DNA from: Escherichia phage HC13
Direction: 5' to 3' (one strand)
Sequence record: OL362276.1
DNA: 39,803 bases
Under the pieces are notes generated by a model that was not told the origin of the DNA, did no database searches, and saw only the letters and a list, made by a program, of their open reading frames with translations. How positions within the stretch are numbered: position 1 is the stretch's first letter; every line of letters starts with the position of its first letter. The position numbers were made by a program, and so were the translations under genes. Shown piece after piece: positions 2,775-36,791 of the stretch.

Positions 2775-5456
2775 ATGAGCGTCATCTCTATTGACAAGCA
2801 CGACTTCTCTGATGTGTCGAACGCCATTGAGCCGTTTAACCTACTGGCTGACCACTACGGGCAAGACCTTGCAGTCAAACAGCTTCAGCTTGAGCACGAG
2901 GCATACACTGAAGGCGAGCGACGTTTCATCAAGAACCTTGAGAGACAGACTGAGCGAGGGGAACTGGCAGACAATCAGGTCGCCAAGCCTTTGATGCAGA
3001 CTCTGGTCCCTAAGATTGCGCAAGCCGTCAAGGAGTGGCATGAAGGTCCAGACGGGAAGCTGTCAACCTCTCGTCCTAGCGTAGCGTTCACCGTGTTGAG
3101 CACTGAAGAGAAGGCCGTCAAGGACCGCTCTATGCGCATCTCCTGTGAGTCCGCTGCGGTTATCATACTGAAGGTCATACTCTCCAAGCTGGTCAAGCCT
3201 GAAGGGATACCGATTACACCGATGGCCTCCGCGATAGGTCGCACACTTGAGGACGAAATCCGCTTCGGTCGCATCCGTGACAAAGAGAAAGAGCACTTCA
3301 AGAAGGCGATAGCTGATAACCTGAATAAGCGGGCCGGGGCGTCATACAAGAAAGCCTACATGCAAGCGGTCGAGGCGTCCATGCTGGAGCAAGGCCAACT
3401 GGAAGATGCGTGGGGGACTTGGAGTCCTACAGAGGCTGTCCACGTTGGCATCAAGATGCTCGAGATTGTCATCCAGTCAACACAACTGGTCGAGCTTAAG
3501 CGGTATGGTGCTGGTAATGCAGCGGCTGACGTAGAGATGGTCCACCTGTCAGACTTCTGGGTCAAGAAGATGGCACAACGAGGATTCAGCCTTGCGGGTA
3601 TAGCTCCAGTCTACCAGCCTTGCGTCGTTCCACCTAAGCCGTGGACTGGTGTCGTAGGCGGTGGGTACTGGGCCAAAGGACGCAGACCATTACCACTGAT
3701 TCGCTTAGGGTCTAAGTCTGCGGTAGCACGCTACGAAGACGTGTATATGCCTGAAGTCTATGACGCTGTGAACATCATTCAGAATACACCTTGGAAAGTG
3801 AACAAGAAGGTTCTGGAAGTGGTGAACATGGTCGAGAAGCTGAACAACACGCCTATTGATGACATCCCTCAGATGGAACCGCTGAAGCCTGAGGACTATG
3901 CGGGTGAGACTGAAGAAGAACTCAAGGCATGGAAGAAGGCTGCTGCTGGTATCTATCGCCGCGAGAAGGCCAGACAGTCACGAAGATTGTCACTGAGCTT
4001 TATCGTCAACCAAGCGAACAAGTTCTCTCAGTTCAAGGCCATCTGGTTCCCGTATAACATGGACTGGCGCGGTCGCGTCTACGCTGTGCCGATGTTCAAC
4101 CCTCAGGGTAACGACATGCAAAAGGGTCTTCTGACTCTGGCAGTCGGTAAGCCTATTGGTGCTGATGGTTTCAAATGGCTGAAGGTCCACGGTGCAAACT
4201 GCGCGGGTGTCGATAAAGTCACCTTCGAGGAGCGTATCAAGTGGGTGGAAGATAACCACGACAACATCATGGCTGCTGCCAATGCACCGATGGATAGCAT
4301 TGAGTGGTGGGGCAAGTTAGACTCTCCGTTCTGCTTCCTAGCGTTCTGCTTCGAGTATGCTGGCGTAATGCACCACGGCTTGTCTTACTCCTGCTCGCTG
4401 CCGATAGCGTTCGATGGGTCCTGCTCTGGGATTCAGCACTTCAGCGCTATGCTTCGCGACCACATCGGTGGACATGCAGTAAACCTGACGCCATCCGGTA
4501 AGGTCCAAGACATCTACCGCATCGTGTCTGACCGCATTGAGGAGGAGCTTAAAGTCCTACTGGTTAACGGTACGGACAACGAGATGGTAACTCACGAGGA
4601 CAAGAAAACTGGTGAGATTACCGAGCGTCTCAAGCTGGGGACACGAGAGCTTGCCCGTCAGTGGCTGACCTACGGTATGTCACGAAAGGTCACTAAGCGT
4701 TCGGTCATGACTCTGGCCTACGGGTCGAAAGAGTACGGCTTCGCAGACCAAGTTTACGAGGACATCGTGATGCCAGCGATTGACTCAGGGTCTGGCGCTA
4801 TGTTCACTGAACCAAGCCAAGCATCTCGCTTCATGGCTAAGATGATTTGGGAAGCTGTGAGTGTGACCGTAGTTGCTGCGGTTGACGCGATGAAATGGCT
4901 TCAGGGTGCTGCCAAGCTGCTTGCTGCTGAAGTGAAGGACAAGAAGACTGGAGAAATCCTGAAGCCTTGTCTTCCGGTACACTGGGTCACACCTGATGGT
5001 TTCCCTGTCTGGCAGGAATACCGCAAGAAGGACACCACTCGTCTGAACCTGATGTTCTTAGGGTCATTCAACCTTCAGCCTACCGTCAACAAAGGCACGA
5101 AGAAAGAGCTGGACAAGCACAAGCAGGAGTCAGGCATTAGCCCGAACTTCGTCCACTCACAAGATGGTAGCCACCTGCGGAAGACTGTAGTCCACACTCA
5201 CCGCAAGTATGGCGTGATGTCATTCGCAGTGATTCACGATAGCTTCGGGACCATCCCTGCTGACGCTGAGTATCTGTTCCGTGGTGTCCGTGAGACGATG
5301 GTCGAGACATACCGCGATAACGATGTGCTGCTTGACTTCTACGAGCAGTTTGAATACCAGCTTCATGAAAGCCAGCGCGACAAGTTGCCTGAGCTTCCGA
5401 AGAAAGGTAAACTGAATATCGAAGACATCTTGTCTTCAGACTTTGCATTCGCTTAA
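2775..5456 (+). CDS. 1: Single-subunit DNA-directed RNA polymerase (T7 gene 1 homologue)
   Basis: 893 aa, aligns end to end with T7 RNAP as recalled (ANQFKAIWFPYNMDWRGRVYA, HGANCAGVDK, DGSCSGIQHFSAM, KRSVMTLAYGS, NFVHSQDGSHLR, IHDSFGT, C-terminal SDFAFA). Confidence 0.97.
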   Translation: MSVISIDKHDFSDVSNAIEPFNLLADHYGQDLAVKQLQLEHEAYTEGERRFIKNLERQTERGELADNQVAKPLMQTLVPKIAQAVKEWHEGPDGKLSTSRPSVAFTVLSTEEKAVKDRSMRISCESAAVIILKVILSKLVKPEGIPITPMASAIGRTLEDEIRFGRIRDKEKEHFKKAIADNLNKRAGASYKKAYMQAVEASMLEQGQLEDAWGTWSPTEAVHVGIKMLEIVIQSTQLVELKRYGAGNAAADVEMVHLSDFWVKKMAQRGFSLAGIAPVYQPCVVPPKPWTGVVGGGYWAKGRRPLPLIRLGSKSAVARYEDVYMPEVYDAVNIIQNTPWKVNKKVLEVVNMVEKLNNTPIDDIPQMEPLKPEDYAGETEEELKAWKKAAAGIYRREKARQSRRLSLSFIVNQANKFSQFKAIWFPYNMDWRGRVYAVPMFNPQGNDMQKGLLTLAVGKPIGADGFKWLKVHGANCAGVDKVTFEERIKWVEDNHDNIMAAANAPMDSIEWWGKLDSPFCFLAFCFEYAGVMHHGLSYSCSLPIAFDGSCSGIQHFSAMLRDHIGGHAVNLTPSGKVQDIYRIVSDRIEEELKVLLVNGTDNEMVTHEDKKTGEITERLKLGTRELARQWLTYGMSRKVTKRSVMTLAYGSKEYGFADQVYEDIVMPAIDSGSGAMFTEPSQASRFMAKMIWEAVSVTVVAAVDAMKWLQGAAKLLAAEVKDKKTGEILKPCLPVHWVTPDGFPVWQEYRKKDTTRLNLMFLGSFNLQPTVNKGTKKELDKHKQESGISPNFVHSQDGSHLRKTVVHTHRKYGVMSFAVIHDSFGTIPADAEYLFRGVRETMVETYRDNDVLLDFYEQFEYQLHESQRDKLPELPKKGKLNIEDILSSDFAFA

Positions 5457-6547: not shown

Positions 6548-7593
6548 TGACAACTATCAAAACTAACCCTCACCGCGCTGTAGATTACTCTGAGTCTGGA
6601 ATTAAGAAGGCACTGGAAGCAGCCGGGTCTCTGGAAGCTGAAGTGAAGTACGATGGTGTGCGCCTGAACCTCCTGGTCCTGCGTGAAGGTGAGACCTACT
6701 GGCTTAGCCGCGAGTCGAAACCTCTACCAGCCTTGGAGTGGATGAACTCTGAGTTAGGTAATGCGTGGACCCAAGCTGACTGGCGATGGTTCCTGCGTCA
6801 ATCCGGCTACGAAGGTGTGGGCATGATGATTGATGGCGAGGTCATGGTCAAAGGTGTAGACTTCAACACCTCCTCAGGTCTCATCCGAACGAAGTGGCTC
6901 AAGCCTAACAACGAGGAGTTCGCTGAATACTATTCGCCGGCGACTGGTGGAAAGAAGCTCCCGTTCTGGGGATCCCGGTCACGACTTCAGGTTGTGGTCT
7001 ACGGTGTCATCGACATGACAACCATTGCTGACCCGAAAGCCGAAGGTCCTATCCATAGCGTCACACGCCTGAAGGCCGAAGCTATCGTCCCTCTCCTCCA
7101 GAAATACTTCCCGGAAATCGACTGGGCTCTGTCTGAGTCACACACGGTCTATGACCTTGAGTCGCTCAACTCCCTGTACGAACAGAAGCGTCTGGAAGGA
7201 CACGAGGGTCTGGTAGTCAAGGACCCACTGGGTAAATATAAGCGTGGCAAGAAGTCAGGCATGTGGAAGATGAAGCCTGAGGAGACCATCGACGGGACCG
7301 TGTGTGGTCTCGTGTGGGGGACTCATGGTAAGGCTAACGAGGGCAAGGTCATCGGCTTCGAGGTTCTGCTTGAGGATGGCATGGTGGTTAACGCCTGTGG
7401 TCTGACTGAAGAACAGAAGGCTGAGTTTACGGAAGCCTGTAACACTGATACATATATTCTCGGTGGAATCAATCCATACGAAGGCTGGCAGTGTGAAGTG
7501 CTATTCATGGAGCGGTTCCCTGATGGCTCTCTTCGTCACCCTAGCTTCAAGTGCTGGCGTGGAACGGAAGACAATCCAACCGTTAAGAGCTAA
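6547..7593 (+). CDS. 1.3: ATP-dependent DNA ligase (gene 1.3)
   Basis: Aligns with T7 ligase: catalytic Lys motif EVKYDGVR, EGHEGLVVKDP, KSGMWKMKPE, C-terminal SLRHPSF. I prefer the ATG at 6547 (MTTIKTNP..., matching T7 MMNIKTNP); the track ORF begins at 6532. Confidence 0.93.
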   Translation: MTTIKTNPHRAVDYSESGIKKALEAAGSLEAEVKYDGVRLNLLVLREGETYWLSRESKPLPALEWMNSELGNAWTQADWRWFLRQSGYEGVGMMIDGEVMVKGVDFNTSSGLIRTKWLKPNNEEFAEYYSPATGGKKLPFWGSRSRLQVVVYGVIDMTTIADPKAEGPIHSVTRLKAEAIVPLLQKYFPEIDWALSESHTVYDLESLNSLYEQKRLEGHEGLVVKDPLGKYKRGKKSGMWKMKPEETIDGTVCGLVWGTHGKANEGKVIGFEVLLEDGMVVNACGLTEEQKAEFTEACNTDTYILGGINPYEGWQCEVLFMERFPDGSLRHPSFKCWRGTEDNPTVKS

Positions 7594-7603
7594 CTAAATG
7601 TCA

Positions 7604-8504: not shown

Positions 8505-8659
8505 CTGACGTAGAGAAGAAATACATCGTGGAGCTTGAGGGTCGCGTTCAGTCCTTCGAGGTTCCGTTGTACGCAAAGTCTCTTGAAGAGGCTACCCTGA
8601 AGTCCCAAGAGTATGAGGACGCTGGGTTTGTGGTCGGACGGATTCGCCCTGAGACCTAA
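8501..8659 (+). CDS. 2: Gp2-like inhibitor of host RNA polymerase
   Basis: My own translation (52 aa): ...[36 protein letters not shown], aligning with T7 Gp2 (...[35 protein letters not shown]). Confidence 0.7.
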
Positions 8660-8678
8660 ACTATCACTGTAGGACAGA
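8655..8678 (+). promoter_or_regulatory. Variant phage RNAP promoter (TAAACTATCACTGTAGG)
   Basis: Family member with A to G at -3. Position equals T7 phi2.5. Confidence 0.55.
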
Positions 8679-8716
8679 CGTCCAGTTAGTAACTTTAAAT
8701 TAGGAGATTTACACCA

Positions 8717-9409
8717 ATGGCTAAAGAGCAACTGAAGACTTTCACCACTCCGGTAGCTGGTATCGTTGAGCCTTACGCATGGCTGAACAAAGCAGACACC
8801 AAGTTTAATGAACGTGGTGAGCATAAGGTTAACCTGACGTTCGACCTGAGCGACCCGAAGGTCCGTAAGATGATTGATGTCTTACAGAAGATTCACGACG
8901 ATGCGTATGCGAAAGCACTCGCAGACCACGAGAAGAACCCACCTCAGGTTCAGCGTGGCAAGAAGCCTATTGAACCACGTGAAGGCGACATGCCGTGGAT
9001 TGAGAATGGTGACGGTACTGTTACCCTTAAGTTTAAATGCTTTGCGTCTTACCTGAAAGACGGCAAGTCCGAGCCTATCTTATTACGGTTCTACGACACC
9101 GATGCTAAACTCATCCGTGACGTCCCGAATATTAGCGCTGGCTCCAAACTGAAGGTCAAGTTTAAAGTCCTGCCGTTCAAGTGGAACGCTGCGACCGGTG
9201 CAAGCGTTAAGCTCCAGCTTGAGTCCTGCCTTCTTGTAGAACTGAAGGAGTGGAAAGGTGCTGGTGGTGATGGTGGCTGGGGTGATGATGAAGACCTTGG
9301 TACTGGCTACAAAGCGCCAACCGATGGTGACTTCGGGTCTGATGCCTTCGGTGACGATGGTTCCGAAGGTGGTGACGACTCCAGCTCTGGTGGCGATTAC
9401 GACTTCTAA
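8717..9409 (+). CDS. 2.5: Single-stranded DNA-binding protein (gene 2.5)
   Basis: Aligns with T7 gp2.5 (AEPYAWLNK, GKKPIEPREGDMPW, GASVKLQLES, acidic C-terminus ending in F). Confidence 0.93.
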   Translation: MAKEQLKTFTTPVAGIVEPYAWLNKADTKFNERGEHKVNLTFDLSDPKVRKMIDVLQKIHDDAYAKALADHEKNPPQVQRGKKPIEPREGDMPWIENGDGTVTLKFKCFASYLKDGKSEPILLRFYDTDAKLIRDVPNISAGSKLKVKFKVLPFKWNAATGASVKLQLESCLLVELKEWKGAGGDGGWGDDEDLGTGYKAPTDGDFGSDAFGDDGSEGGDDSSSGGDYDF

Positions 9410-9858
9410 TGGCTACAGTGAAAAGCCTTAAGCAGCGACTCATGGTTTCGGGTGACTGCTGGCTTTTTACAGGCTGCGTTAACAACAAGGGCTACGGTCA
9501 GATTAGGCATAATGGGAAAACCATGCTTGCACATCGCGTAGCCTACGAGCTGATTACAGGTGAGGAACCTAACGGTGTTCTACTACACACTTGTGACACT
9601 CCGCTATGTTGTAACCCTGAGCATCTGACTGTAGGAACCCAACGGGACAACCTTCAGGACATGCGTAACAAGGGGCGCGGTGTAAACCCTCCTCATGTTC
9701 CGGGAGAGAAGTGTGGTATGTCTAAACTTACCAACACTAAAGTCAAGGAAATTAGGTCTTCCAGCCTTACCCAGCGACAGCTCGCCACAATCTACGGAGT
9801 GTCTCAGCCGACAATAGGTAAGATACTAAGGAGAGAAACATGGCGACACGTAATATAA
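9409..9858 (+). CDS. HNH family homing endonuclease
   Basis: LAHRVAYEL...HTCDTPLCCNPEHL...QRDN is a classic HNH His-Cys core. C-terminal LTQRQLATIYGVSQPTIGKIL is helix-turn-helix-like. Start overlaps the SSB stop (TAATG). Confidence 0.8.
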   Translation: MATVKSLKQRLMVSGDCWLFTGCVNNKGYGQIRHNGKTMLAHRVAYELITGEEPNGVLLHTCDTPLCCNPEHLTVGTQRDNLQDMRNKGRGVNPPHVPGEKCGMSKLTNTKVKEIRSSSLTQRQLATIYGVSQPTIGKILRRETWRHVI

Positions 9859-10295
9859 GCAGGGGTCACTCGATAGGAATATACCGTTCCGGCCTTGAGG
9901 CCAAGAACCAAGAGTGGCTAGAGAAGAACGGAGTTAAGGCTGAGTACGAAATGTATAACATTAAGTACACAATACCTGAGTCACTCCATAGTTATTGTCC
10001 AGACTTTGTTCTTCCAAATGGAATCATCGTGGAGACCAAGGGAATCTTCGCAGTCGAAGACCGTAAGAAGCACCTTCTGGTACGCGAACAACACCCAGAG
10101 TTAGACATCCGGTTCGTGTTCTCAAGTTCCCGCTCCAAGTTATACAAAGGGTCTCCGACCACGTATGGCGCATGGTGCGAAAAGAACGGATTTAAGTATG
10201 CCGATAAGTTCATCCCGGTTGAGTGGCTGCGAGAGGCGACTGTACGTCTTCCCTCAGGTATCCTCATCCCCAAGAAGAAAGGAGTTAAGTTATGA
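9840..10295 (+). CDS. 3: Endonuclease I, Holliday-junction resolvase (gene 3)
   Basis: Aligns with T7 endo I (FRSGLE, PDFVLPNGIIVETKG, DRKKHLLVREQHPELDIRFVFSSSRSKLYKGSPT). Confidence 0.92.
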   Translation: MATRNISRGHSIGIYRSGLEAKNQEWLEKNGVKAEYEMYNIKYTIPESLHSYCPDFVLPNGIIVETKGIFAVEDRKKHLLVREQHPELDIRFVFSSSRSKLYKGSPTTYGAWCEKNGFKYADKFIPVEWLREATVRLPSGILIPKKKGVKL

Positions 10296-10516
10296 CTCAA
10301 GAAGTTAAGGTCGTTCGTAAGCGTCTGACCATTGATAAAATCCCGGTAGGCTATGCGTTTATCGTCCACGGTAAGCCGGGTGAAGTGTACGTGAAGATTA
10401 GTAACTCTCACGTCTTCAACCATAAGTTGCTCCAGATGCACACCACTGATGCTAACCGCTTCCAACGTCATCTGAACCTCGTAGCTGTAGAGCTGGTGGT
10501 GTACGATGGTGAGTAA
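10292..10516 (+). CDS. Hypothetical protein (74 aa)
   Basis: Strong SD AAAGGAG seven nt upstream. Sits between endo I and lysozyme; no motif recognised. Confidence 0.5.
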   Translation: MTQEVKVVRKRLTIDKIPVGYAFIVHGKPGEVYVKISNSHVFNHKLLQMHTTDANRFQRHLNLVAVELVVYDGE

Positions 10517-10964
10517 GGTTCAGTTCAACCCACGGTCCCGTACTGACGCTATCTTCGTTCACTGTTCGGCTACAAAGCCAGATATGGACATCGGGGTAGA
10601 GACCATCCGTATGTGGCACAAGCAGCAAGGCTGGCTGGACGTAGGCTACCACTTTATCATCAAGCGCGATGGTACTGTGGAAGAGGGACGCCCTGTCAAT
10701 GTCGTAGGGTCACACGTTAAGGACTGGAACTCACGGTCTGTAGGCGTCTGCCTTGTAGGTGGAATTGACGCTAAGGGCAAGTTTGAAGCTAACTTCACTC
10801 CAGCCCAGATGAACTCCCTGCGCAACAAGCTGGCTGACCTGAAGTCCATGTATCCTCAGGCAGAAATCAAAGCACATCATGATGTAGCACCAAAGGCGTG
10901 TCCAAGTTTCGACTTACAGCGCTGGCTGTCTACCAATGAACTGGTCACTTCCGACCACGGTTAA
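10506..10964 (+). CDS. 3.5: N-acetylmuramoyl-L-alanine amidase / T7 lysozyme (gene 3.5)
   Basis: Near-collinear with T7 lysozyme (DAIFVHCSATKP, WLDVGYHFIIKRDGTVEEGR, GVCLVGGIDAKGKF, HHDVAPKACPSFDL). Confidence 0.95.
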   Translation: MVSKVQFNPRSRTDAIFVHCSATKPDMDIGVETIRMWHKQQGWLDVGYHFIIKRDGTVEEGRPVNVVGSHVKDWNSRSVGVCLVGGIDAKGKFEANFTPAQMNSLRNKLADLKSMYPQAEIKAHHDVAPKACPSFDLQRWLSTNELVTSDHG

Positions 10965-10988
10965 TAAACTCTAAAGGAGAATAACTCA

Positions 10989-11204
10989 ATGATTAAACTT
11001 ATTGAATTTCTTGGTCGTCTGGTGGTGCGTGGTTATCGTCGTGCTGCGGTACTGGAACGAAAGGTAGAAAAGAAGACTGCTGACGGTGCGGCTGATGCTG
11101 CTGCGCTGGCTGACAAGCTGACCATCGCGTCACTGGAAGCTGGAATGAAGGCACGCCAAGCTGACACCAAAGCTGACCAGTTGGCTCAGTTCTTCAAAGA
11201 CTAA
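10989..11204 (+). CDS. Hypothetical protein (71 aa)
   Basis: Good SD. Hydrophobic/basic N-terminus, Ala-rich, C-terminal FFKD. No function inferred. Confidence 0.5.
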   Translation: MIKLIEFLGRLVVRGYRRAAVLERKVEKKTADGAADAAALADKLTIASLEAGMKARQADTKADQLAQFFKD

Positions 11205-11223
11205 ACTATCACCTTAGGGATTG
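11200..11223 (+). promoter_or_regulatory. Variant phage RNAP promoter (TAAACTATCACCTTAGGGA)
   Basis: Family member with two changes in the -5/-4 region. Lies directly upstream of gene 4. Confidence 0.5.
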
Positions 11224-11269
11224 GACCATGAGTCCTTTCCCTTTGTTCGCATTTGTGCTTAAGGAGTGA

Positions 11270-12973
<1,704 letters not shown>

Positions 12974-13149: not shown

Positions 13150-13195
13150 GTCTAGACTCAAGGTCATTCACAGCGAGTGGCCTTTATGATTAGAC
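13150..13195 (+). promoter_or_regulatory. Putative RNase III processing hairpin (R4.7-like)
   Basis: Lower stem GUCUAG pairs with UUAGAC, internal loop, upper stem AAGGUCAU pairs with GUGGCCUU, 9-nt loop. Same family as 6022 and 36801. Confidence 0.45.
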
Positions 13196-13212
13196 TAAAG
13201 CGGAGGATTAAC

Positions 13213-13644
13213 ATGAGGACTTGCAGTAGATGTGGCTCCACAAAGGAGTCAACTGAGTTCAGGAAGATAAATGGGTGGTGCATATCCTGTGTTCGTGAGG
13301 ATAATAGGCTGCGATACCACCGAAACAAAGGTACAGATGCTGGTGAGGCGCATCGCCTATCTGCCCGTAAGTCTTGGCTTAAGAAAGCCTATGGTCTCAC
13401 ACTTGAGGAATATGACACTATGTTCGATAGTCAAAAGGGCAGATGCGCTATATGCTCAGACATTATCTTCAAGCATGGGTCTATTGAGAGTAAGAATAAT
13501 GTAGCCCACGTTGACCATTGCCATGACTCAGGTATTGTTAGGGGATTGCTATGTGGTACATGTAATAGCGCACTTGGTAAGTTCGGTGACAAGGTAGCCG
13601 TGCTTAGGGCTGCTATAGCGTACTTGGAGAAATATAATGTTTAA
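13213..13644 (+). CDS. HNH homing endonuclease, endonuclease VII-like His-Me finger
   Basis: GRCAICSD...VAHVDHCHDSGIVRGLLCGTCNSALG is the endonuclease-VII-type signature. N-terminal CSRCG...CISC zinc ribbon. SD GGAGGA before the ATG at 13213 (the track ORF starts upstream at 13177). AT-rich, with rare AGA/AGG/ATA codons. Confidence 0.8.
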   Translation: MRTCSRCGSTKESTEFRKINGWCISCVREDNRLRYHRNKGTDAGEAHRLSARKSWLKKAYGLTLEEYDTMFDSQKGRCAICSDIIFKHGSIESKNNVAHVDHCHDSGIVRGLLCGTCNSALGKFGDKVAVLRAAIAYLEKYNV

Positions 13645-15808
13645 TCTCAACTCATTCTATGGCACAGATATAGAGACTGACGGTCTACTAGACACTGTGT
13701 CACAGTTCCATTGTGGTGTTATCATTAACGCCGGAACTCAGGCTACTGAGAAATATGGTGTTGCCCCTATGACTGGGCTGACAGGTGGATTCAAAGAGTA
13801 CATAGACCGCATAGAATCTATTATGGCATCCACTGACGGTATGCTGGTTCTGCACAATGGTGTGAACTATGATATACCAGCCTTGAAAATACTGAAGAAG
13901 AAATACTTTGGTAAGAACCTAAATGTGAATAAGGGTCGAATTATTGATACCTTGGTGCTGGGACGCTTGATGTATCCAAACATTAAGTTCTCAGACATGG
14001 GCGCGGTGAAAGCTGGTCGTCTGCCTCCTAAGATGATGGGACGCCAGTCTCTTGAGGCTTGGGGTTATCGTCTCGGTGAGATGAAGGGTGAGTACAAACA
14101 CGATTACGTTGCCAAGTGCAAGGCAGAAGGTATCGAATATAAGGCTGGGGACGAATGGTTGTTCCCATCTCAGGAGATGCTGGACTATAACGTTCAAGAC
14201 GTTGTGGTCACACTGGCGTTGTTCAAGAAGTTCCTGACTGACAAGTATTACTTCCAGTCTGAACAGTTCGCTTTCGAACAGATTTATGCGTTGCGTCTGG
14301 AACATGATGCTGCGTGGACCTGTGCGAAGATGGAGCGTAACGGCTATCCGATGAACACCGAGATGGTCGAAGGCTTATATCGTGAACTCACTGTCAAACG
14401 TGCTGAGTTGCTGGACAAGCTGCGTTCGACTTTCGGCAGCTGGTACGCACCAAAGGGAGGCAAGGAGTTCTTCAAGCACCCACGGACAGGCAAGGACCTC
14501 CCGAAGTATCCGCGAGTCGTGTACCCTAAGGTCGGGTCAGTATTCAAGAAGCCGAAGAACAAAGCTCAACGCTTAGGTCTGGAACCTTGCGAGTTCGACT
14601 CACGAGACACGATGAAGGGAGCACCGTTCACACCTATCACTTACGTTGAGTTTAATCCGGGAAGCGGAGACCACTTAGCGAAAGTCCTGATGGAGCGTGG
14701 CTGGGAGCCTGTGGACTTCACTGACACCGGGAAACCTGTAGTCGATGACGAGACGTTAGAACACGTTAAGTTACCAGACGCAGAGGCTCAGGCTTGCGTA
14801 GAGCTGGTCCGTGAGTATCTGGTAGTCCAGAAGAGAATCGGGCAGGCTGCTGAAGGTAAGAACGCTTGGTTGAAACTTGTAGGTCCAGACGGACGTATGC
14901 ACGGTTCAATCAACCCATGTGGTGCAGTAACCGGACGTGCGACTCATAGTTCACCAAACATGGCTCAGGTCCCGGCTAACGGTGCTCCATACGGTGAGAC
15001 TTGCCGTGGTGCTTTCGGTGCAGCGTGGAACAAGAAGGACGGTAAGCCAGACCCTTGGATTCAAGTAGGTGTGGATGCCTCAGGTCTTGAGCTTCGTTGT
15101 CTTGGGAACAGAGCGGCTCCGTTTGATGGTGGTGCCTATGCGAAGACTGTGGTCGAAGGTGACATCCACTGGGCCAACGCAGTAAACGCTGGGTTAGCAC
15201 CTAACGTCCAACGCGATAAGTCTAACCACGACCATGAGGCTTTCCGTAACAACGCTAAGACGTTCATCTACGCGTTCCTGTATGGTGCAGGGGCCGCTAA
15301 GATTGGACTGATAGTAGGCGGTGGTAAGAAGGAAGGTTCAGCGCTCATGAAGAAATTCATTGAGGGTACACCAGCTATCAAGGACCTCAGGGAAGCTGTG
15401 CAGAACACGCTCATCTCTGAGTCCAAATGGGTAGACGGTGAGAACATCGTGAAGTGGAAACGCCGCTGGCTGAAAGGTCTGGACGGTCGACGCATCCACA
15501 TCCGGTCGCCACACTCAGCACTGAACGCCTTACTTCAGGGTGATGGTGCGGTAGTCTGTAAGCACTGGATTGTTGAGACTGAACGTATGCTTGAAGCCGA
15601 AGGATATGTCCACGGCTGGGATGGAGACTTTGCGTACATGGCATGGGTGCACGATGAGCTACAAATTGCCTGTAAAAACAAGGACTTAGCAGAACGCGTA
15701 GTAGAAATTGCTCAACTTGCTATGCGTAAGGTTGGTGAGTTCTATAACTTTAAATGTGTGTTAGACACGGAGGGTAAAATTGGACCAACGTGGAAAGAAT
15801 GCCATTGA
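13637..15808 (+). CDS. 5: DNA polymerase (gene 5, family A)
   Basis: Collinear with T7 gp5 (exo motif DIETDG, FHCGVI, EAWGYRLGEMKGEYK, YNVQDVVVT, GAVTGRATH, NAKTFIYAFLYGAG, YMAWVHDE, C-terminal WKECH). Start overlaps the HNH stop by 8 nt. Confidence 0.97.
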   Translation: MFNLNSFYGTDIETDGLLDTVSQFHCGVIINAGTQATEKYGVAPMTGLTGGFKEYIDRIESIMASTDGMLVLHNGVNYDIPALKILKKKYFGKNLNVNKGRIIDTLVLGRLMYPNIKFSDMGAVKAGRLPPKMMGRQSLEAWGYRLGEMKGEYKHDYVAKCKAEGIEYKAGDEWLFPSQEMLDYNVQDVVVTLALFKKFLTDKYYFQSEQFAFEQIYALRLEHDAAWTCAKMERNGYPMNTEMVEGLYRELTVKRAELLDKLRSTFGSWYAPKGGKEFFKHPRTGKDLPKYPRVVYPKVGSVFKKPKNKAQRLGLEPCEFDSRDTMKGAPFTPITYVEFNPGSGDHLAKVLMERGWEPVDFTDTGKPVVDDETLEHVKLPDAEAQACVELVREYLVVQKRIGQAAEGKNAWLKLVGPDGRMHGSINPCGAVTGRATHSSPNMAQVPANGAPYGETCRGAFGAAWNKKDGKPDPWIQVGVDASGLELRCLGNRAAPFDGGAYAKTVVEGDIHWANAVNAGLAPNVQRDKSNHDHEAFRNNAKTFIYAFLYGAGAAKIGLIVGGGKKEGSALMKKFIEGTPAIKDLREAVQNTLISESKWVDGENIVKWKRRWLKGLDGRRIHIRSPHSALNALLQGDGAVVCKHWIVETERMLEAEGYVHGWDGDFAYMAWVHDELQIACKNKDLAERVVEIAQLAMRKVGEFYNFKCVLDTEGKIGPTWKECH

Positions 15809-16196
15809 CGGAAAGTCCCTGCATTATACAGGTGCTGCGAGCGAGTTGTATGCGAGCTACCGACTGACGGCTATGGGACACCAAGTCTTCCTACCTGCGT
15901 TCACCCAGTCCAAAGCGGACTTAGTGGTGGATATCAACGGGACCCTTATGAGGGTTCAGGTGAAAACTGGGACCAAGCTGAAGAACTGTAATAGCATTCA
16001 GGTCCGGCTTGGTGGGTGCGGTAAGCCAACTTACAGTCCTGGAGACATCGACCTACTAGCGGTTGTCTATCAGGATTTGCTCTGGCTTATACCGTTCACT
16101 GAAGAGGTTAGAGTCAAGACCTCTATGTGTATAAACTTAACGTCTGACAAGAAGTACGGACAATTTAAACAGGAGAAGACTAATGGCTATTACTAA
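15780..16196 (+). CDS. Hypothetical protein, possible PD-(D/E)xK-like nuclease fold
   Basis: TTG start with SD GGAGGG five nt upstream. Pattern E(22)...ADLVVD...RVQVK resembles restriction-endonuclease-like / Hjc-type cores, with Q in place of the usual acidic residue. Weak inference. Confidence 0.4.
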   Translation: MDQRGKNAIDGKSLHYTGAASELYASYRLTAMGHQVFLPAFTQSKADLVVDINGTLMRVQVKTGTKLKNCNSIQVRLGGCGKPTYSPGDIDLLAVVYQDLLWLIPFTEEVRVKTSMCINLTSDKKYGQFKQEKTNGYY

Positions 16197-16467
16197 ACGT
16201 ATTCGTGTGAGTTTTGATCTGAAGATGGTTGTTAACTCAAAGGAAGAAGATACCATGTGTCGCCAACTGGCTGAGATGACTAAAGCCTACGCTGAGGGTG
16301 AGGAGCTGGATGGTCTTCAGTTGGCTATGGTAAAAACCGCAATCGAGTCAGGCCCTGAGTCTGCCCTTGAAATTGCCCTCAAGAAGACCATCAAGGAGGA
16401 GCTGGTAGACGACTTTGGTTATGGCCAGTTCGGAGTATCTAACCTGCGATTCGAGGTCAAGCAATGA
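16183..16467 (+). CDS. 5.5: gp5.5-like protein
   Basis: N-terminus MAITKRIRVSFDL resembles T7 gp5.5 (MAMTKKFKVSFDV, recollection). Position between gene 5 and 5.7. Confidence 0.55.
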   Translation: MAITKRIRVSFDLKMVVNSKEEDTMCRQLAEMTKAYAEGEELDGLQLAMVKTAIESGPESALEIALKKTIKEELVDDFGYGQFGVSNLRFEVKQ

Positions 16468-20600: not shown

Positions 20601-21485
20601 ATGTCCCAATCAGTTTATGCCGAGTTCGGCGTTAGCTCTAATGCAATCACTGGTTCCGTTGAGGACCTGAACGAACACCAGAAGTCTATGCTTGAACAGG
20701 ACGTAGCGGTACGTGATGGCGACGACGCTATTACCTTCAAGCAACTGGAAGCCGAAAACGAAGAGGCTGCCGAAGAAGACGAGAACGTCGAAGAGACTGA
20801 AGGTGAAGAAGACCACGAGTCCGATGACGAAGAGTCTGAGACCGATGGTGAACAACCTGAGTTCGTCGAACTGGGTGATGCACCTAAAGAGCTGACCGAA
20901 AGTGTCACCGCTCTGGATGAAAACGAAGCTGCATTCGACGACATGGTGTCTTCTGCTGTGGAAGCTGGCAAGGTCACTGCTGATGAAATTACCGCTATCA
21001 AGGCTGAATACGCCAAGGACGGTAAGCTGTCTGACGCATCCTACGCTAAGTTGCAGGAAGCAGGTTACACCAAGCGTTTCGTAGATTCGTTTGTCCGTGG
21101 TCAGGAAGCTCTGGCTGAACAGTATGCTGCTGGTGTGGTTCGCTACGCTGGTGGAGCTGAACAGTTTAACCGCATTCTGTCTCACCTTGAGTCCAACGAC
21201 CCGTCAACTCGTGAAGCACTGGAAGCTGCTATCGTTCGTAAGGACATTGCTACTACCAAAGCTCTGCTGAATCTGGCTGGCAAGACTCTGGGTAAAGCTG
21301 TGGGTGTTAAACCTCAGCGTACCATCACCACTCAGGCTAAACCTGTGGTCGCACCTAAGGCTCCTCAGACCGAAGCATTCAGCTCCAAGGCTGACATGAT
21401 TAAGGCTATGAGTGACCCGCGATACCTGCGTGACGCTAAATACACGATGGAAGTTCGCGCTAAGGTAGCTGCCTCAAGCCTGTAG
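20601..21485 (+). CDS. 9: Capsid assembly (scaffolding) protein (gene 9)
   Basis: Acidic, low-complexity; aligns with T7 gp9 (AVRDGDDAI, GYTKRFVDSFVRGQEAL, KAMSDPRY). I prefer the ATG at 20601 with SD AAAGGAGAG; the track ORF starts at 20568. Confidence 0.9.
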   Translation: MSQSVYAEFGVSSNAITGSVEDLNEHQKSMLEQDVAVRDGDDAITFKQLEAENEEAAEEDENVEETEGEEDHESDDEESETDGEQPEFVELGDAPKELTESVTALDENEAAFDDMVSSAVEAGKVTADEITAIKAEYAKDGKLSDASYAKLQEAGYTKRFVDSFVRGQEALAEQYAAGVVRYAGGAEQFNRILSHLESNDPSTREALEAAIVRKDIATTKALLNLAGKTLGKAVGVKPQRTITTQAKPVVAPKAPQTEAFSSKADMIKAMSDPRYLRDAKYTMEVRAKVAASSL

Positions 21486-21486
21486 G

Positions 21487-21510
21487 ACTAAACTATCACT
21501 ATAGGGAGAC
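21487..21510 (+). promoter_or_regulatory. Phage RNAP promoter, perfect class-III type (TAAACTATCACTATAGGGAGACC, +1 about 21504)
   Basis: Best consensus match in the window. The transcript starts GGGAGACC and can pair with GGUUUCCC 20 nt downstream, as in the T7 gene 10 leader. Confidence 0.85.
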
Positions 21511-21611
21511 CAAGAGAAAGACTCAAGGTTTCCCTATTACTTCAGTCCATACGGATTGGGCATACAGTAAGTAATAAACTTTATCTTTCAATTGAATAGG
21601 AGAATTATCAT

Positions 21612-22661
21612 ATGGCAAACGTTCCGGGTCAGAAAGTTGGTACAGACCAAGGTAAAGGCAAATCTGGTTCCGACGCTCTGGCGTTGTTCCTGAAGGTCTT
21701 TGCTGGCGAAGTCCTGACAGCATTCACTCGCCGCTCTGTAACTGCTGACAAGCATATTGTCCGTACCATTCAGAACGGTAAGTCTGCTCAGTTCCCGGTC
21801 ATGGGTCGCACCTCTGGTGTGTATCTGGCTCCGGGTGAGCGACTGTCCGATAAGCGTAAAGGTATCAAACATACCGAGAAAGTGATTACCATTGATGGTC
21901 TGCTGACTGCCGATGTGATGATTTTCGACATTGAAGACGCGATGAACCACTATGACGTGGCTGGCGAGTACTCCAACCAGTTGGGCGAAGCTCTGGCTAT
22001 CGCTGCCGATGGTGCGGTACTGGCTGAGATGGCTATTCTGTGTAACCTGCCGGCTGCATCTGATGAAAACATCGCTGGTCTTGGCAAAGCGTCTGTGCTG
22101 GAAGTTGGTACTAAAGCAGACCTGAACACTCCGGCTAAGCTTGGTGAAGCAATCATCGGTCAACTGACCATTGCTCGTGCGAAGCTGACATCCAACTACG
22201 TTCCTGCTGGCGACCGTTACTTCTACACCACACCGGACAACTACTCTGCAATCCTCGCGGCTCTGATGCCGAACGCTGCTAACTATGCTGCGCTGATTGA
22301 CCCAGAGACTGGTAACATCCGTAACGTAATGGGCTTCGTGGTTGTTGAAGTTCCACACTTGACTCAGGGTGGTGCTGGGGAAACTCGTGGTGCCGATGGT
22401 ATCACTATTGCGACTGGTCAGAAGCACGCCTTCCCAGCTACTGCTACTGGTGATGTTAAAGTTGCTCTGGACAACGTTGTAGGCCTGTTCTCTCACCGTT
22501 CTGCTGTAGGTACTGTTAAGCTGCGTGACTTGGCGCTGGAACGTGACCGCGACGTCGATGCTCAGGGCGACCTGATTGTTGGTAAGTACGCTATGGGTCA
22601 CGGTGGTCTGCGCCCAGAAGCAGCAGGCGCACTGGTTTTCACAGCGGCGCCAGCGGGTTAA
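21612..22661 (+). CDS. 10A: Major capsid protein 10A
   Basis: Near-collinear with T7 gp10A (GKSAQFPV, HTEKVITIDGLLTADV, YSAILAALMPNAANYAALIDPE, HRSAVGTVKLRDLALER, AMGHGGLRPEAAGA). Confidence 0.97.
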   Translation: MANVPGQKVGTDQGKGKSGSDALALFLKVFAGEVLTAFTRRSVTADKHIVRTIQNGKSAQFPVMGRTSGVYLAPGERLSDKRKGIKHTEKVITIDGLLTADVMIFDIEDAMNHYDVAGEYSNQLGEALAIAADGAVLAEMAILCNLPAASDENIAGLGKASVLEVGTKADLNTPAKLGEAIIGQLTIARAKLTSNYVPAGDRYFYTTPDNYSAILAALMPNAANYAALIDPETGNIRNVMGFVVVEVPHLTQGGAGETRGADGITIATGQKHAFPATATGDVKVALDNVVGLFSHRSAVGTVKLRDLALERDRDVDAQGDLIVGKYAMGHGGLRPEAAGALVFTAAPAG

Positions 22662-27771: not shown

Positions 27772-30054
27772 ATGGCTAGTAATATTGAATCAGCTCTGGC
27801 TAATCGGACTATGGGTCGTGGCAGAGCGCCGGGTAAAACTATCGCCGTCAACTATCAAGCAGCCAGCGTTCAGGCTCCAACTGGTGACTCCGGTCTGGCT
27901 CGGGCGTTAACCAACTTCGTTGAGTCTGGGACTGGATTATACAAGCAGTTCAAAGACGAGGAGAAGACACGGGCCGACGAGCGGTCTAACGAGATTATCC
28001 GTAAGCTGACACCTCAACAAAGACGTGAGGCTATCCAGAACGGCACACTGCTGTATCAGGACGACCCTTACGCTATGGAAGCACTTCGAGCCAAGACTGG
28101 ACGTAACGCTGCCTTTGCGGTGGATGACGAGATTAACGTTAAGATTCAGAACGGTGAGTTCCGTACACGTCAGGACATGGAAGAGTATCGCCACCAGCGA
28201 CTTCAGGACGCCGCTAAGTCCTATGCTGAAGAGGCGGGTATTAACCCTACCGATGAGTTCTTCCAGCGCGGGTTCAACGATAACATCACAGACCGCAACA
28301 TCGCTATCTATGGGTCTTTCAATAAGTATTTCAGCAAGCAGTCTGAAGAGACAGCAATGTTGAACACTCGTATTGAGATGAACTCGTTCCTTAACGATGG
28401 CGACCTGATGCGTTCACCTGAGTCTGGCAAGACATTCATGGCCTACCTTCGTGACGGACTGACTACTGCTGCTATCCCCTCGGACCAGCGAGCGCGGGAG
28501 GTCATTACCCAGACGGTCCGTGACGCAATCCAGAAGTCAGGCGGCTCAAACTTCCTACAGCAAGTACGAGGCGAGCGCATCTCCCTTAACGGAGTGGACG
28601 CTACAGTCGAGGAGATTGTAGGACCTGATGTCTTCAACGCTGCTATTGTTGAGGCACAAGGAACTGAGTACAAGCTGGTGGCTAAGTATCAGGAAGACTT
28701 ATCGTTAGGCGTTCAGTCTGCGATTCTTCAGGACGACCCAACCATCGGTCTTGCCCAGATTCAGAAACTCAAGGAGCAGAACAACCTGCTTCAGCCGGGT
28801 GAAGAACTTACGCCTCAGCGTCAGATGCTTATTAATGCCGAAGCCAGCTTACTGGAAGCGGTCAAGCGTAAGTCTGCTGAACAGGCGAAGGAGAACACTA
28901 AGTTAATCCAGACCCAGAACAAGCAACTAGTCATAGACCAAGTGTATCAGCGACGTCTGTCTGGAGACAACGTGTCCACCAACTATGAGGACCTTCCGGT
29001 CTCTGAAGCCACAGGAGAGTTCAAGCGTTCAGACATGAACAACTATGCGTCTGCTAAGCTACAGCAGATTGACCAGATGGACATCCCTGAGGCTGCTAAG
29101 GACGCCCAGAAGGTGGCATTGTTAAGGGCTGACACTAACAACGGTCCGTTCCGTAATGCCTTCCAGACTCTTACTCAGGACGCTGCTGGTGAGTGGCAGG
29201 CTTCGGTCATCCGTGGACAGTACGACCCAGACAAGATGCAACGCTTCGAGTCTCTTCGCCGTGCCTACACTCAGGACCCTTCAAGTTTCGCTGCTCTGTA
29301 TCCTGACCAAGCTCAGTTGTTCTCTACGTTCGACCAGATGGACAAGATGGGTCTGGACCCTCAGACGATGATTGAAGCTGATAAGCAAGCTGCAAGTCAA
29401 AGCCGTGAGATGCGCATGGAGTCAGACAAGGCGTGGCAGGAGTTGAAGAACGACTCTCGGAATAAGGACCTTTCGCGTCTTCCTACGTCTCTGGACTCAA
29501 GTGCTCGTAAGGTCTGGGACTCATGGTACTATCGTACCGGTAACGCTGACGCTGCAACTCAGCAGACTCAACGCTGGCTGAATGAGAACACCTTAACGTT
29601 CCAGTCTGAAGGTTCTGACGGTAAGTCCATCGGCATGGTGTCGAAGCACCAGCTTATGGTCGGGGATAACCCAGAGTCGTGGCAGGTGGGTCGAGACATT
29701 ATCGACACCGCTCGTCAGCAGCTCATTAAGGCCAACCCTTGGGTAGTGAACTCTCAGTTGTCAGTTGTTGAACAGAACGGCTCTATCTTCCTCCAAGACG
29801 CTACAGGGACTATTCGTATTCGCTACGATAAAGAACTTGTAGGTAAACTCTACCGCGAACAACAGCAGAAGGCACAAGATGCCGCATATGCTCAGGCAGA
29901 ACGTGACGCTAACAAGCGAGCGCGTATCGTCGGGACTAAAGCTGCTGGTGACAAACGTCGTGCTGACCGAGAGGCCAACATCGAGAAGCGCGGTGGGATG
30001 TACAATGACGTCTCACTGGAGGGTATCGCAAACACCTTAATCGGTAAGGAGTAA
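27772..30054 (+). CDS. 15: Internal virion protein B (gene 15)
   Basis: 760 aa, position and size equal T7 gp15 (747 aa). Strong SD. Confidence 0.8.
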   Translation: MASNIESALANRTMGRGRAPGKTIAVNYQAASVQAPTGDSGLARALTNFVESGTGLYKQFKDEEKTRADERSNEIIRKLTPQQRREAIQNGTLLYQDDPYAMEALRAKTGRNAAFAVDDEINVKIQNGEFRTRQDMEEYRHQRLQDAAKSYAEEAGINPTDEFFQRGFNDNITDRNIAIYGSFNKYFSKQSEETAMLNTRIEMNSFLNDGDLMRSPESGKTFMAYLRDGLTTAAIPSDQRAREVITQTVRDAIQKSGGSNFLQQVRGERISLNGVDATVEEIVGPDVFNAAIVEAQGTEYKLVAKYQEDLSLGVQSAILQDDPTIGLAQIQKLKEQNNLLQPGEELTPQRQMLINAEASLLEAVKRKSAEQAKENTKLIQTQNKQLVIDQVYQRRLSGDNVSTNYEDLPVSEATGEFKRSDMNNYASAKLQQIDQMDIPEAAKDAQKVALLRADTNNGPFRNAFQTLTQDAAGEWQASVIRGQYDPDKMQRFESLRRAYTQDPSSFAALYPDQAQLFSTFDQMDKMGLDPQTMIEADKQAASQSREMRMESDKAWQELKNDSRNKDLSRLPTSLDSSARKVWDSWYYRTGNADAATQQTQRWLNENTLTFQSEGSDGKSIGMVSKHQLMVGDNPESWQVGRDIIDTARQQLIKANPWVVNSQLSVVEQNGSIFLQDATGTIRIRYDKELVGKLYREQQQKAQDAAYAQAERDANKRARIVGTKAAGDKRRADREANIEKRGGMYNDVSLEGIANTLIGKE

Positions 30055-30059
30055 TAATA

Positions 30060-36192: not shown

Positions 36193-36336
36193 AAACAACC
36201 TCAGCCGAATCGGGTTATTTATCATCAGAACGGTATTGAATCATCGAAGGTTGTGGAGGTAGAGGCTAACTACACGTTGACCAACGTATGATAACAACTT
36301 TGGGTCACGGACGACCCGCTTTAAACTGGAGGTTTT

Positions 36337-36531
36337 ATGATTGAGTTAGACTTCAAGAATGAGGTCCTCAAAGCCTCGCCTATCGTCGGGACCGCTGCGG
36401 CTGATGGTGCCAGTCGGTTCTTCTTTGGGCTAACGCTCAACGAATGGTTCTACGTCGCTGCTATCGCGTACACCGTGGTGCAGATTGGCGTCCTAATTTA
36501 CAAGACGATTAAGAGCGGAGGTAAGACATGA
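36337..36531 (+). CDS. 17.5: Class II holin (gene 17.5)
   Basis: Aligns with T7 holin (LDFKNEVLKASPIVGT, FFFGLTLNEWFYVAAIAYTVVQIG). Confidence 0.9.
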   Translation: MIELDFKNEVLKASPIVGTAAADGASRFFFGLTLNEWFYVAAIAYTVVQIGVLIYKTIKSGGKT

Positions 36532-36791
36532 CGCAGATGGACTTAGAGAAGTTCCTGTTAATGCTGGACACAGAACGTGCTAGACTAATGCTTCAAGACC
36601 TGCGGGATGACTCTAAGCGTTCGCCCCAGCTCTACAACGCCATTGAGAAGCTACTGGCTCGTCACAACTTCGTGCTAAGCAAGGTGTCTGTTGACGAGAA
36701 GACGCTCGCTGATATGGAGGCCCTGAACGCAGAGTACGATAAGGTGCTCTCCGCTACGGAAGATAATGACACTGGATATGGAGTGCAGTAA
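36528..36791 (+). CDS. 18: Terminase small subunit (gene 18)
   Basis: Aligns with T7 gp18 as recalled (FLLMLDTERARLMLQDL, RSPQLYNAIEKLL). Confidence 0.8.
   Translation: MTQMDLEKFLLMLDTERARLMLQDLRDDSKRSPQLYNAIEKLLARHNFVLSKVSVDEKTLADMEALNAEYDKVLSATEDNDTGYGVQ

Follow-up and report, generated by a model that had tools for sequence, protein, structure and literature searches.

Free-standing phage endonucleases cut away from their own gene and co-convert the flanks (PMC2988022; PMC12724721), and nuclease genes lying beside essential genes have been described at the edges of blocks of identity, with cognate sites taken by unrelated nucleases of the same class (Barth et al. 2023, PMC10448857). In phage T7, genes 2.8, 7.7 and 3.8 are dispensable, all three being deleted in T7-delta-3HE, and collectively they give a competitive advantage against GAPS4 (bioRxiv 10.1101/2025.09.07.674715). 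Here we examine a gene of the T7 gp2.8/gp7.7 family in Escherichia phage HC13, a T7-like Kayfunavirus (Studiervirinae) whose complete genome is the window analysed (39,803 bp) and whose nearest relatives are Kayfunavirus phages. The gene encodes an HNH endonuclease and lies between gene 2.5, for the single-stranded DNA-binding protein (SSB), and gene 3, for endonuclease I. It is probably a free-standing homing endonuclease gene with a co-converted, and probably cleavage-immune, flank in gene 3. The HC13 protein is already annotated in GenBank as an HNH homing endonuclease (100% identical); this analysis adds the exact extent of the block (9402 to ~10084), the completeness of its linkage, a silent-site pattern and a candidate for the target.

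The HNH gene and its linked gene-3 allele

The features of the locus, in window positions, are as follows.

8717-9409, + strand: gene 2.5, SSB (Pfam SBB_T7, 244 bits), the upstream flank, without an HNH-linked allele
9409-9858, + strand: HNH endonuclease gene, free-standing, the positional counterpart of T7 gene 2.8
9457-9660, + strand: nuclease core of the HNH protein (residues ~17-84)
9718-9837, + strand: C-terminal helix-turn-helix of the HNH protein (residues ~104-143)
9827-9842, + strand: Shine-Dalgarno TAAGGAG (9827-9833) and gene 3 ATG (9840-9842), inside the last HNH codons
9840-10295, + strand: gene 3, endonuclease I, a Holliday-junction resolvase (Pfam Phage_endo_I, 248 bits)
9840-10084, + strand: E-type (HNH-linked) 5' tract of gene 3, with 31 fixed differences in 9872-10008 and near-identity to UFJF_EcSW4 up to 10084
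9952-9998, + strand: tightest clustering of the fixed E/Q differences, 23 of them within 47 nt (gp3 residues 38-53)

A megablast search with positions 8700-11000 matched 247 related records, most of which align in two pieces, skipping the HNH gene. About seven of them (about 3%) carry an HNH gene at the SSB/gene-3 junction: the HC13 type occurs in just three other records, UFJF_EcSW4, Emlis and Midid, and in pO91, PE3-1 and JSS1 precisely this site holds a different HNH gene, whose protein is ~43% identical. The seeming truncation of the PE3-1 gene was rejected, the DNA being 99% identical to that of pO91 with no indels and just the annotation being short. Nine further HNH-plus genomes were found in IMG/VR and ENA/Logan, all with the HNH gene placed between those for SSB and endonuclease I, and the HNH-plus set used below comprises 15 genomes (isolates, IMG/VR contigs and ENA/Logan assemblies with close HNH homologues).

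When sliding identity was taken against four HNH-less relatives, HC13 was 92-97% identical to them through SSB, about 70% identical in gene 3 from 9861 to ~10058, and 97-99% identical from 10085 onward. In the junction alignment, homology to HNH-less phages runs through the stop-start TAATGGC and resumes at codon 8 of gene 3. Over the 3'-terminal 400 nt of SSB, HC13 shares 85-96% identity with its relatives whether or not they have the HNH gene, and an upstream co-conversion tract in SSB was rejected, there being no HNH-linked allele on that side. Immediately left of the block boundary, the acidic C-terminal tail of SSB (9379-9401) is a small hotspot of indels and substitutions, reading ..SSSGGDYDF in HC13 and ..DSEGDYNF in UFJF_EcSW4 and carrying an 18-nt repeat insertion in Midid.

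Among the segment trees, only that of the gene-3 5' tract splits the phages with and without an HNH gene into two deep clades (between-group distance 0.32), whereas the two groups are interspersed, at 0.03-0.06, in the trees of SSB, of the 3' part of gene 3 with the 74-aa open reading frame (ORF) that follows it, of lysozyme and of primase. An earlier reading of the letters alone (the sequence-only reading) had proposed comparing the phylogeny of gene 3 with those of its neighbours; the two disagree over the initial 57-82 codons of gene 3 and agree over the rest of the interval.

The linked allele, or E-type tract (..QEWLEKNG..EMY.I.YTIP.SLH.YCPDFV..), occurs in all 15 HNH-plus genomes and in none of the 14 ordinary HNH-minus genomes, all 14 of which have the Q-type tract (..QQWLEQNG..ESHYINYVIPASDHKYTPDFI..). 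The 31 nucleotide differences fixed between the 15 E-type and the 14 Q-type sequences all lie in 9872-10008, the other 231 nt of gene 3 having none. In addition, a tract that reaches 83% identity to that of HC13 is found in the phage database only in records with an HNH gene at the site. Among HNH-less phages the Q-type tract has a p-distance of 0.040, against 0.095 in the rest of gene 3, and this greater conservation is as would be expected of a homing target. The right boundary of the tract lies at the most conserved stretch of gene 3, PDFxLPNGIIVETKG, which offers homology for crossovers and which, by comparison with T7 endonuclease I, we take to hold the catalytic Asp/Glu/Lys.

The comparison with UFJF_EcSW4 gives the extent of the block. 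The two phages are 94% identical across 36 kb, but in 9402-10084 they differ at only 1 of 683 nt, and this interval contains the longest perfect run of the whole comparison (459 nt); the mismatch density is ~8.5% immediately upstream and 5.5% beyond 10658. The block from 9402 to ~10084 points to a recent joint transfer of the HNH gene and the tract. The mobile block thus delimited consists of the HNH gene plus the opening 57-82 codons of gene 3. The sequence-only reading had suggested homing-associated co-conversion, or a separately acquired module, extending to 10516; a shorter block is what we retain, mainly on comparative evidence and not mainly on codon use. Extension into the 74-aa ORF was rejected, that ORF having no rare codons, no fixed differences and 96-99% identity to both HNH-plus and HNH-minus relatives with the short form, and both this ORF and the remainder of gene 3 are ordinary backbone.

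We also considered a donor of the E-type tract outside this group and rejected it: beyond the HNH-plus Kayfunaviruses, no phage or IMG/VR contig exceeds 80% identity in nucleotides or 76% in amino acids. A more distant T7-like phage (L140), with a 61%-identical HNH gene at the same site, is just marginally nearer to the E-type (52%) than to the Q-type (46%). A loss stage is represented by the IMG/VR contig L055 (IMGVR_UViG_2974604219_000001), which has no HNH gene but in which the first ~56 nt of a pO91-type HNH ORF are fused in frame to gene 3; its gene 3 (1447-1953) begins with 18 codons of the pO91-type HNH gene and continues into an E-like 5' half-tract, and it is a deletion scar of the HNH gene. 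The same contig has a second ORF (2031-2339) that joins the N-terminus of lysozyme to a second copy of the 3' end of gene 3, either a rearrangement or an assembly artefact.

The HNH protein and the proposed homing cycle

The HNH ORF is intact and encodes 149 aa. Its placement agrees with the sequence-only reading, which had it wedged between SSB and endonuclease I and overlapping both: at TAATG (9407-9411), one base belongs both to its ATG and to the SSB stop, and at the other end it runs 19 nt into gene 3, which starts at 9840. The HNH core and C-terminal helix-turn-helix-like segment proposed in the same reading were also recovered, as a match to Pfam HNH_3 (PF13392) at residues 40-82 (39.7 bits against a cut-off of 24.8) and as sub-threshold matches to helix-turn-helix profiles at residues 112-143. 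PHROG HNH/endonuclease families match the protein at 1e-31 to 1e-11. The columns that are invariant in 43-45 homologues (C17, H42, R43, C62, C67 and H72) are all present in HC13, as are the near-invariant ones (H60, D63, N69, N81 and D84). The AlphaFold2 model, with a predicted local distance difference test score (pLDDT) of 89, gives the protein a beta-beta-alpha-metal (His-Me) fold followed by a helix-turn-helix and is closest to I-HmuI and I-PpoI; at the sequence level, no relative in the PDB was found at E < 0.4. The T7 relatives found by tblastn are gp7.7 (47% identity, 119 bits, E 5e-30) and gp2.8 (40% identity, 91 bits, E 4e-20), with both matches spanning more than 90% of the length.

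The cassette rewires expression at the junction. It takes over the SSB-coupled TAATG start that HNH-less relatives use for gene 3, and its own 3' end supplies gene 3 with a strong Shine-Dalgarno sequence and a start of its own, just as gene 2.8 does in T7.

In the cycle that we propose, an HNH-less relative present in a mixed infection would have its conserved Q-type allele nicked or cut by the HNH enzyme. The cut would lie within the opening third of gene 3, most probably around the positions that correspond to 9952-9998, the alternative being the TAATGGCC junction. The break would be resected and then repaired from the HNH-carrying genome, and with the HNH gene the repair would bring in the 170-245 nt of gene 3 next to it. 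Because this E-type tract and the target disagree at ~30% of positions, we propose that it would not be cut again. The overall process would be intronless homing with one-sided co-conversion, and the 9952-9998 cluster is the candidate for both the immunity determinant and the cleavage-target region. A target in, or at the start of, gene 3 and an immune E-type tract would fit the presence of the linked flank downstream alone, the conservation of the Q-type tract and the finding that no intact HNH gene accompanies a Q-type tract in the 15 HNH-plus genomes, although recombination between the HNH gene and the tract does occur. The marks of the homing class seen at this locus are the sporadic presence of the gene at one site and the co-inheritance of its flank, as a population pattern and not as an observed conversion event.

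The tract also has an unusual silent-site diversity. At least four sub-alleles occur among the HNH-plus phages, namely E1 (HC13/EcSW4), E2, E2b and E3, between which nonsynonymous divergence (dN) is 0.006-0.05 and synonymous divergence (dS) is 1.1-1.5, near saturation, compared with a dS of ~0.2 for the HNH gene and the rest of gene 3. Two comparisons illustrate this.

HC13 and Emlis-type: tract dS 1.3, dN 0.046; HNH gene dS 0.19; rest of gene 3 dS 0.18
Emlis and IMG_139: tract dS 1.2, dN 0.006; HNH gene dS 0.29; rest of gene 3 dS 0.26

Between HC13 and Emlis, 27 of 66 third positions differ in the tract and 26 of 220 outside it (Fisher p ~1e-6). This silent diversity may reflect old alleles persisting beside a recombination barrier. 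It is also possible, although we consider it doubtful, that the first third of gene 3 is the battleground of an arms race, in which the nuclease target is recoded while the protein is conserved, selection is frequency-dependent and HNH variants cut each other's alleles. If true, this would make the locus a compact natural system in which to follow how a homing nuclease and its target co-evolve in coliphages of the therapeutic type; without mutual targeting by the HNH variants, the locus would be a textbook case.

Several points weigh against the homing interpretation. The nuclease activity of the protein, the location of its target and its over-transmission in crosses are things that we infer from sequence comparison, and we came across no publication that maps a site for either T7 gp2.8 or gp7.7. 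The HNH-plus sample is small (15), with some members closely related to each other. HNH alleles and tract sub-alleles occur in varied combinations, and thus the two parts are not a strictly indivisible unit; between Emlis and ERZ27238561, whose HNH type is 78% identical, for example, it is the HNH gene that has the higher dS (1.05, against 0.32 for the tract). Two metagenomic HNH copies, L132 (SRR8960927) and L133 (SRR11125120), have C17R at the family-invariant cysteine, and a third, L136 (ERZ28574585), has G30C at a near-invariant glycine; these copies may be decaying, so that not all copies need be active. Finally, HC13 is strongly mosaic, with several low-identity blocks that have no nuclease gene (ligase, 6600-7600; 30000-30400; 31000-31400), and therefore linkage alone could be hitch-hiking. 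(L132 and L133 each have a further 121-aa HNH_3 gene just upstream of primase, at 3864-4229 and 2204-2569, respectively, which is the position of T7 gene 3.8; HC13 has only a spacer there, 11205-11272.)

The same facts can be arranged into a different account, in which the HNH gene and the divergent tract are an old allelic cassette spread by general homologous recombination, the HNH protein being inert, decaying or otherwise used. Such an account draws on the patchwork structure of HC13, with blocks of 70-100% identity to each relative, many without a nuclease gene, on the reshuffling of the HNH and tract alleles themselves and on the altered residues of some HNH copies. We nevertheless judge it unlikely. 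Recombination between HNH gene and tract is clear, yet the combination of intact HNH gene and Q-type tract is missing from the 15 genomes, and among more than 200 relatives no E-type tract was found without an HNH gene or its scar. The HC13 copy, moreover, keeps every invariant residue. Just three stretches of HC13 have three or fewer mismatches per 600 nt relative to UFJF_EcSW4, namely the HNH block, 13351-13962, which contains another nuclease gene, and 21222-21832 in the scaffold/capsid genes. The last of these is also nearly identical to Emlis and 97-98% identical to pO91, so that the two tightest HC13/EcSW4 blocks that are not near-identical to a third relative are the two with nuclease genes.

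A further alternative is that the HNH gene is kept mainly for the benefit of the phage, as a weapon that would degrade co-infecting HNH-less relatives or as a factor that would bind DNA ends and weaken a host defence such as GAPS4, with homing being secondary. The HNH protein is 40-47% identical to gp2.8 and gp7.7, and a T7 mutant without 2.8, 7.7 and 3.8 loses to the wild type only when GAPS4 is present, while catalytically dead T7 gp3.8 still counters GAPS4 (bioRxiv 10.1101/2025.09.07.674715); in PhiPA3, interference competition is reported to be mediated by an intron-encoded endonuclease (PMC11620839). However, the T7 work gives no effect for gp2.8 alone, and the presence of the gene in just ~3% of related phages argues against a broadly useful function. 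The one-sided linked tract would be left unexplained, whereas homing explains it. We therefore find a mainly beneficial function improbable as the reason for which the gene is kept, although the two roles are not mutually exclusive.

For annotation, the HNH gene plus the opening 57-82 codons of the endonuclease I gene count as one mobile unit in Kayfunaviruses, and gene 3 is therefore unsuitable as a lone marker in phylogeny. The target is predicted to span 47 nt within a well-known resolvase gene, for which natural alleles predicted to be resistant are at hand.

Codon use, transcription and neighbouring loci

The sequence-only reading had started from the frequent use of AGA, AGG, ATA and AAT in the HNH gene, gene 3 and the 74-aa ORF, and we counted these rare codons as a share of the Arg, Ile and Asn codons. 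The HNH gene has 8 of 27 (4.5 expected, p = 0.07) and gene 3 has 7 of 27 (4.1 expected, p = 0.10), compared with 3 of 21 in SSB, 2 of 22 in lysozyme and 0 of 12 in the 74-aa ORF. For the sub-block 9409-10100, with overlapping codons counted in both frames, the figure is 15 of 45 (7.4 expected, p = 0.004), and for 10101-10516 it is 0 of 21. The excess therefore holds, weakly and not significantly for each gene, for the HNH gene and for gene 3 up to ~10100, and the claim fails for the 74-aa ORF; likewise, the atypical block proposed for 9409-10516 is a real but weak anomaly that ends near 10100 and excludes that ORF. The composition profile proposed as a check gave a divided result. AT skew reaches 0.258 at 9626-9925, in the top 0.6% of 300-nt windows, with A-richness across 9626-10100, but the dip in GC content was rejected as a significant signal, its minimum of 0.447 lying merely at the 7th-12th percentile of 300-nt windows, depending on the window step. 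Far stronger codon outliers occur elsewhere in HC13, at 13186-13644 (19/33) and in the tail-fibre gene at 34012-36192 (43/116).

Ten of the 15 rare codons fall in 9814-9879, at the Shine-Dalgarno sequence of gene 3 and the overlap of the two frames. The TAAGGAG is read as ..AGG AGA.. in the HNH frame, and 9827-9842, from this motif to the gene 3 ATG, holds four of the eight rare codons of the HNH gene. Trimming the final 14 codons brings the HNH gene to a typical value (3/21, 3.7 expected), and a gene-wide codon bias, which disappears on their removal, was rejected. This cluster is what would be expected if the composition signal came purely from local coding or regulatory constraint (a Shine-Dalgarno sequence, overlapping frames or a low-expression start for a toxic nuclease) and were silent on origin. 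As a complete explanation, however, constraint is largely refuted by the comparative data, and we regard it as highly improbable, although it does hold for the rare codons close to the junction. E-type tracts have a GC content of 0.43-0.465 and 3-7 rare codons, whereas Q-type tracts have 0.51-0.54 and none, and therefore the impression of an unusual composition in gene 3 is real, as a property of the HNH-linked allele. This foreign-looking composition also speaks for the homing interpretation. Low GC content and rare codons persist in the E-type well past the junction, HC13 having ATA at 9972 and AAT at 10017, and the Q-type has no rare codons at the homologous positions. In addition, the 30% divergence and the linkage are independent of codon counts.

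The surrounding genes and signals are as follows.

10292-10516, + strand: 74-aa ORF, a short form of K1F gp3.2 (PHROG 15211, unknown function), outside the mobile block
10506-10964, + strand: lysozyme gp3.5 (Amidase_2)
8656-8675, + strand: phage-RNA-polymerase promoter upstream of SSB, with 2 mismatches to the consensus CTAAACTATCACTATAGGRA
2684, 6005, 7680, 8656, 11201, 17664, 20503, 21488, 26274, 33944 and 39207, + strand: copies of the promoter consensus CTAAACTATCACTATAGGRA

All called genes of HC13 are on the + strand. The promoter consensus is the genome's own, 20 nt long, and its 11 + strand copies compare with 0 expected by chance. The next site downstream of 8656-8675 is at 11201-11220, with none between, and therefore the genes from SSB to lysozyme, including the HNH gene, form one transcription unit; a promoter or terminator of its own was looked for inside the HNH cassette and none was found. 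No Rfam family reached its gathering score anywhere in the window, and none was found at E <= 1 in 9200-10600. A group I intron hosting the HNH gene was rejected on the lack of an Rfam match and on the position of the ORF between two intact genes. A 159-aa antisense ORF at 9992-10471 was treated as spurious, lying opposite conserved coding sequence in a genome whose called genes are all on the + strand. Against PHROG 16385, which is 157 residues long, the 74-aa ORF aligns solely with the 70 residues at the C-terminus, and the ORF at this position in relatives has 74, 134, 156 or 163 aa, a length polymorphism unrelated to the HNH gene.

Two other nuclease genes were seen in HC13. A second free-standing gene, at 13186-13644 (Pfam Endonuclease_7, 85 bits), lies just upstream of the DNA polymerase gene and is the strongest rare-codon outlier of the genome, with the 19 of 33 given above. 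Its full block, with the flank to ~14000, occurs in 4 of 214 related records, and the 5' end of the polymerase gene (13637-14000) is 60-77% identical to relatives without the Endonuclease_7 gene; the pattern is as at the HNH gene, and 13351-13962 is the stretch nearly identical to UFJF_EcSW4. Directly after the polymerase gene there is a 107-aa ORF for a PD-(D/E)XK_5 nuclease (15873-16196, 33.6 bits), where 15801-16200 has no alignment to three relatives and the 3' end of the polymerase gene (15401-15800) is 70-86% identical. The polymerase gene thus has a nuclease gene on either side and divergent ends. The tail-fibre gene (34012-36192) has a third-position GC content (GC3) of 0.44, along with its 43 of 116 rare codons, and its distal part (~34600-36200) has no match in UFJF_EcSW4 or pO91 and is 99-100% identical to Emlis, which looks like the swap of a host-range module.

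Comparison with described nuclease genes

The terminase-associated HNH genes, of which HK97 gp74 is the type, were rejected as a class for the HC13 gene on account of distance and of sporadic presence. About 27 kb separate the HC13 gene from the terminase genes, at 36528-36791 and 37381-39111, and ~97% of relatives lack it, whereas the HK97 gp74 type is conserved throughout its phage group. I-HmuI of the Bacillus phage SPO1 (PDB 1U3E) is an HNH nickase with 15-16% sequence identity to the HC13 protein; it is intron-encoded and nicks next to its insertion site, whereas the HC13 gene is free-standing and has no intron. The islands of homing endonuclease genes (PMC10448857) resemble the HC13 locus, at which two HNH types that are just 43% identical share one site, but they exceed 10 kb, in contrast to the co-travelling block of less than 0.7 kb in HC13.

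A closer likeness is to SegF, SegG and MobE of phage T4, for which intronless homing is established, with localized exclusion of markers, and where, as in HC13, a free-standing nuclease gene lies by essential genes of DNA metabolism and is sporadic among close relatives (PMC2988022). In these systems the flank is co-converted and the target is in the neighbouring conserved gene, away from the insertion (PMC2988022), which is where we would also place the HC13 target. SegF and SegG are GIY-YIG enzymes whose activity and co-conversion have been shown experimentally, whereas for HC13 everything beyond the sequence pattern is our reconstruction. Unlike that of SegF, SegG and MobE, the linked tract of HC13 is short (~170-245 nt) and on one side only.

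In gene order, the nearest counterpart is T7 gene 2.8. Like the HC13 gene, it lies between genes 2.5 and 3, its start abuts or overlaps the 2.5 stop (TAAGTG in T7, TAATG in HC13), and its 3' end contains the Shine-Dalgarno sequence and ATG of gene 3, the T7 sequence there being AAGGGAGG followed by the ATG. The HC13 protein belongs to the same family but is closer to gp7.7 than to gp2.8, and we do not call it an orthologue of gp2.8. What sets the HC13 gene apart from T7 genes 2.8 and 7.7 is that it has a defined, linked gene-3 allele and that it is sporadic within its genus (~3% of records).

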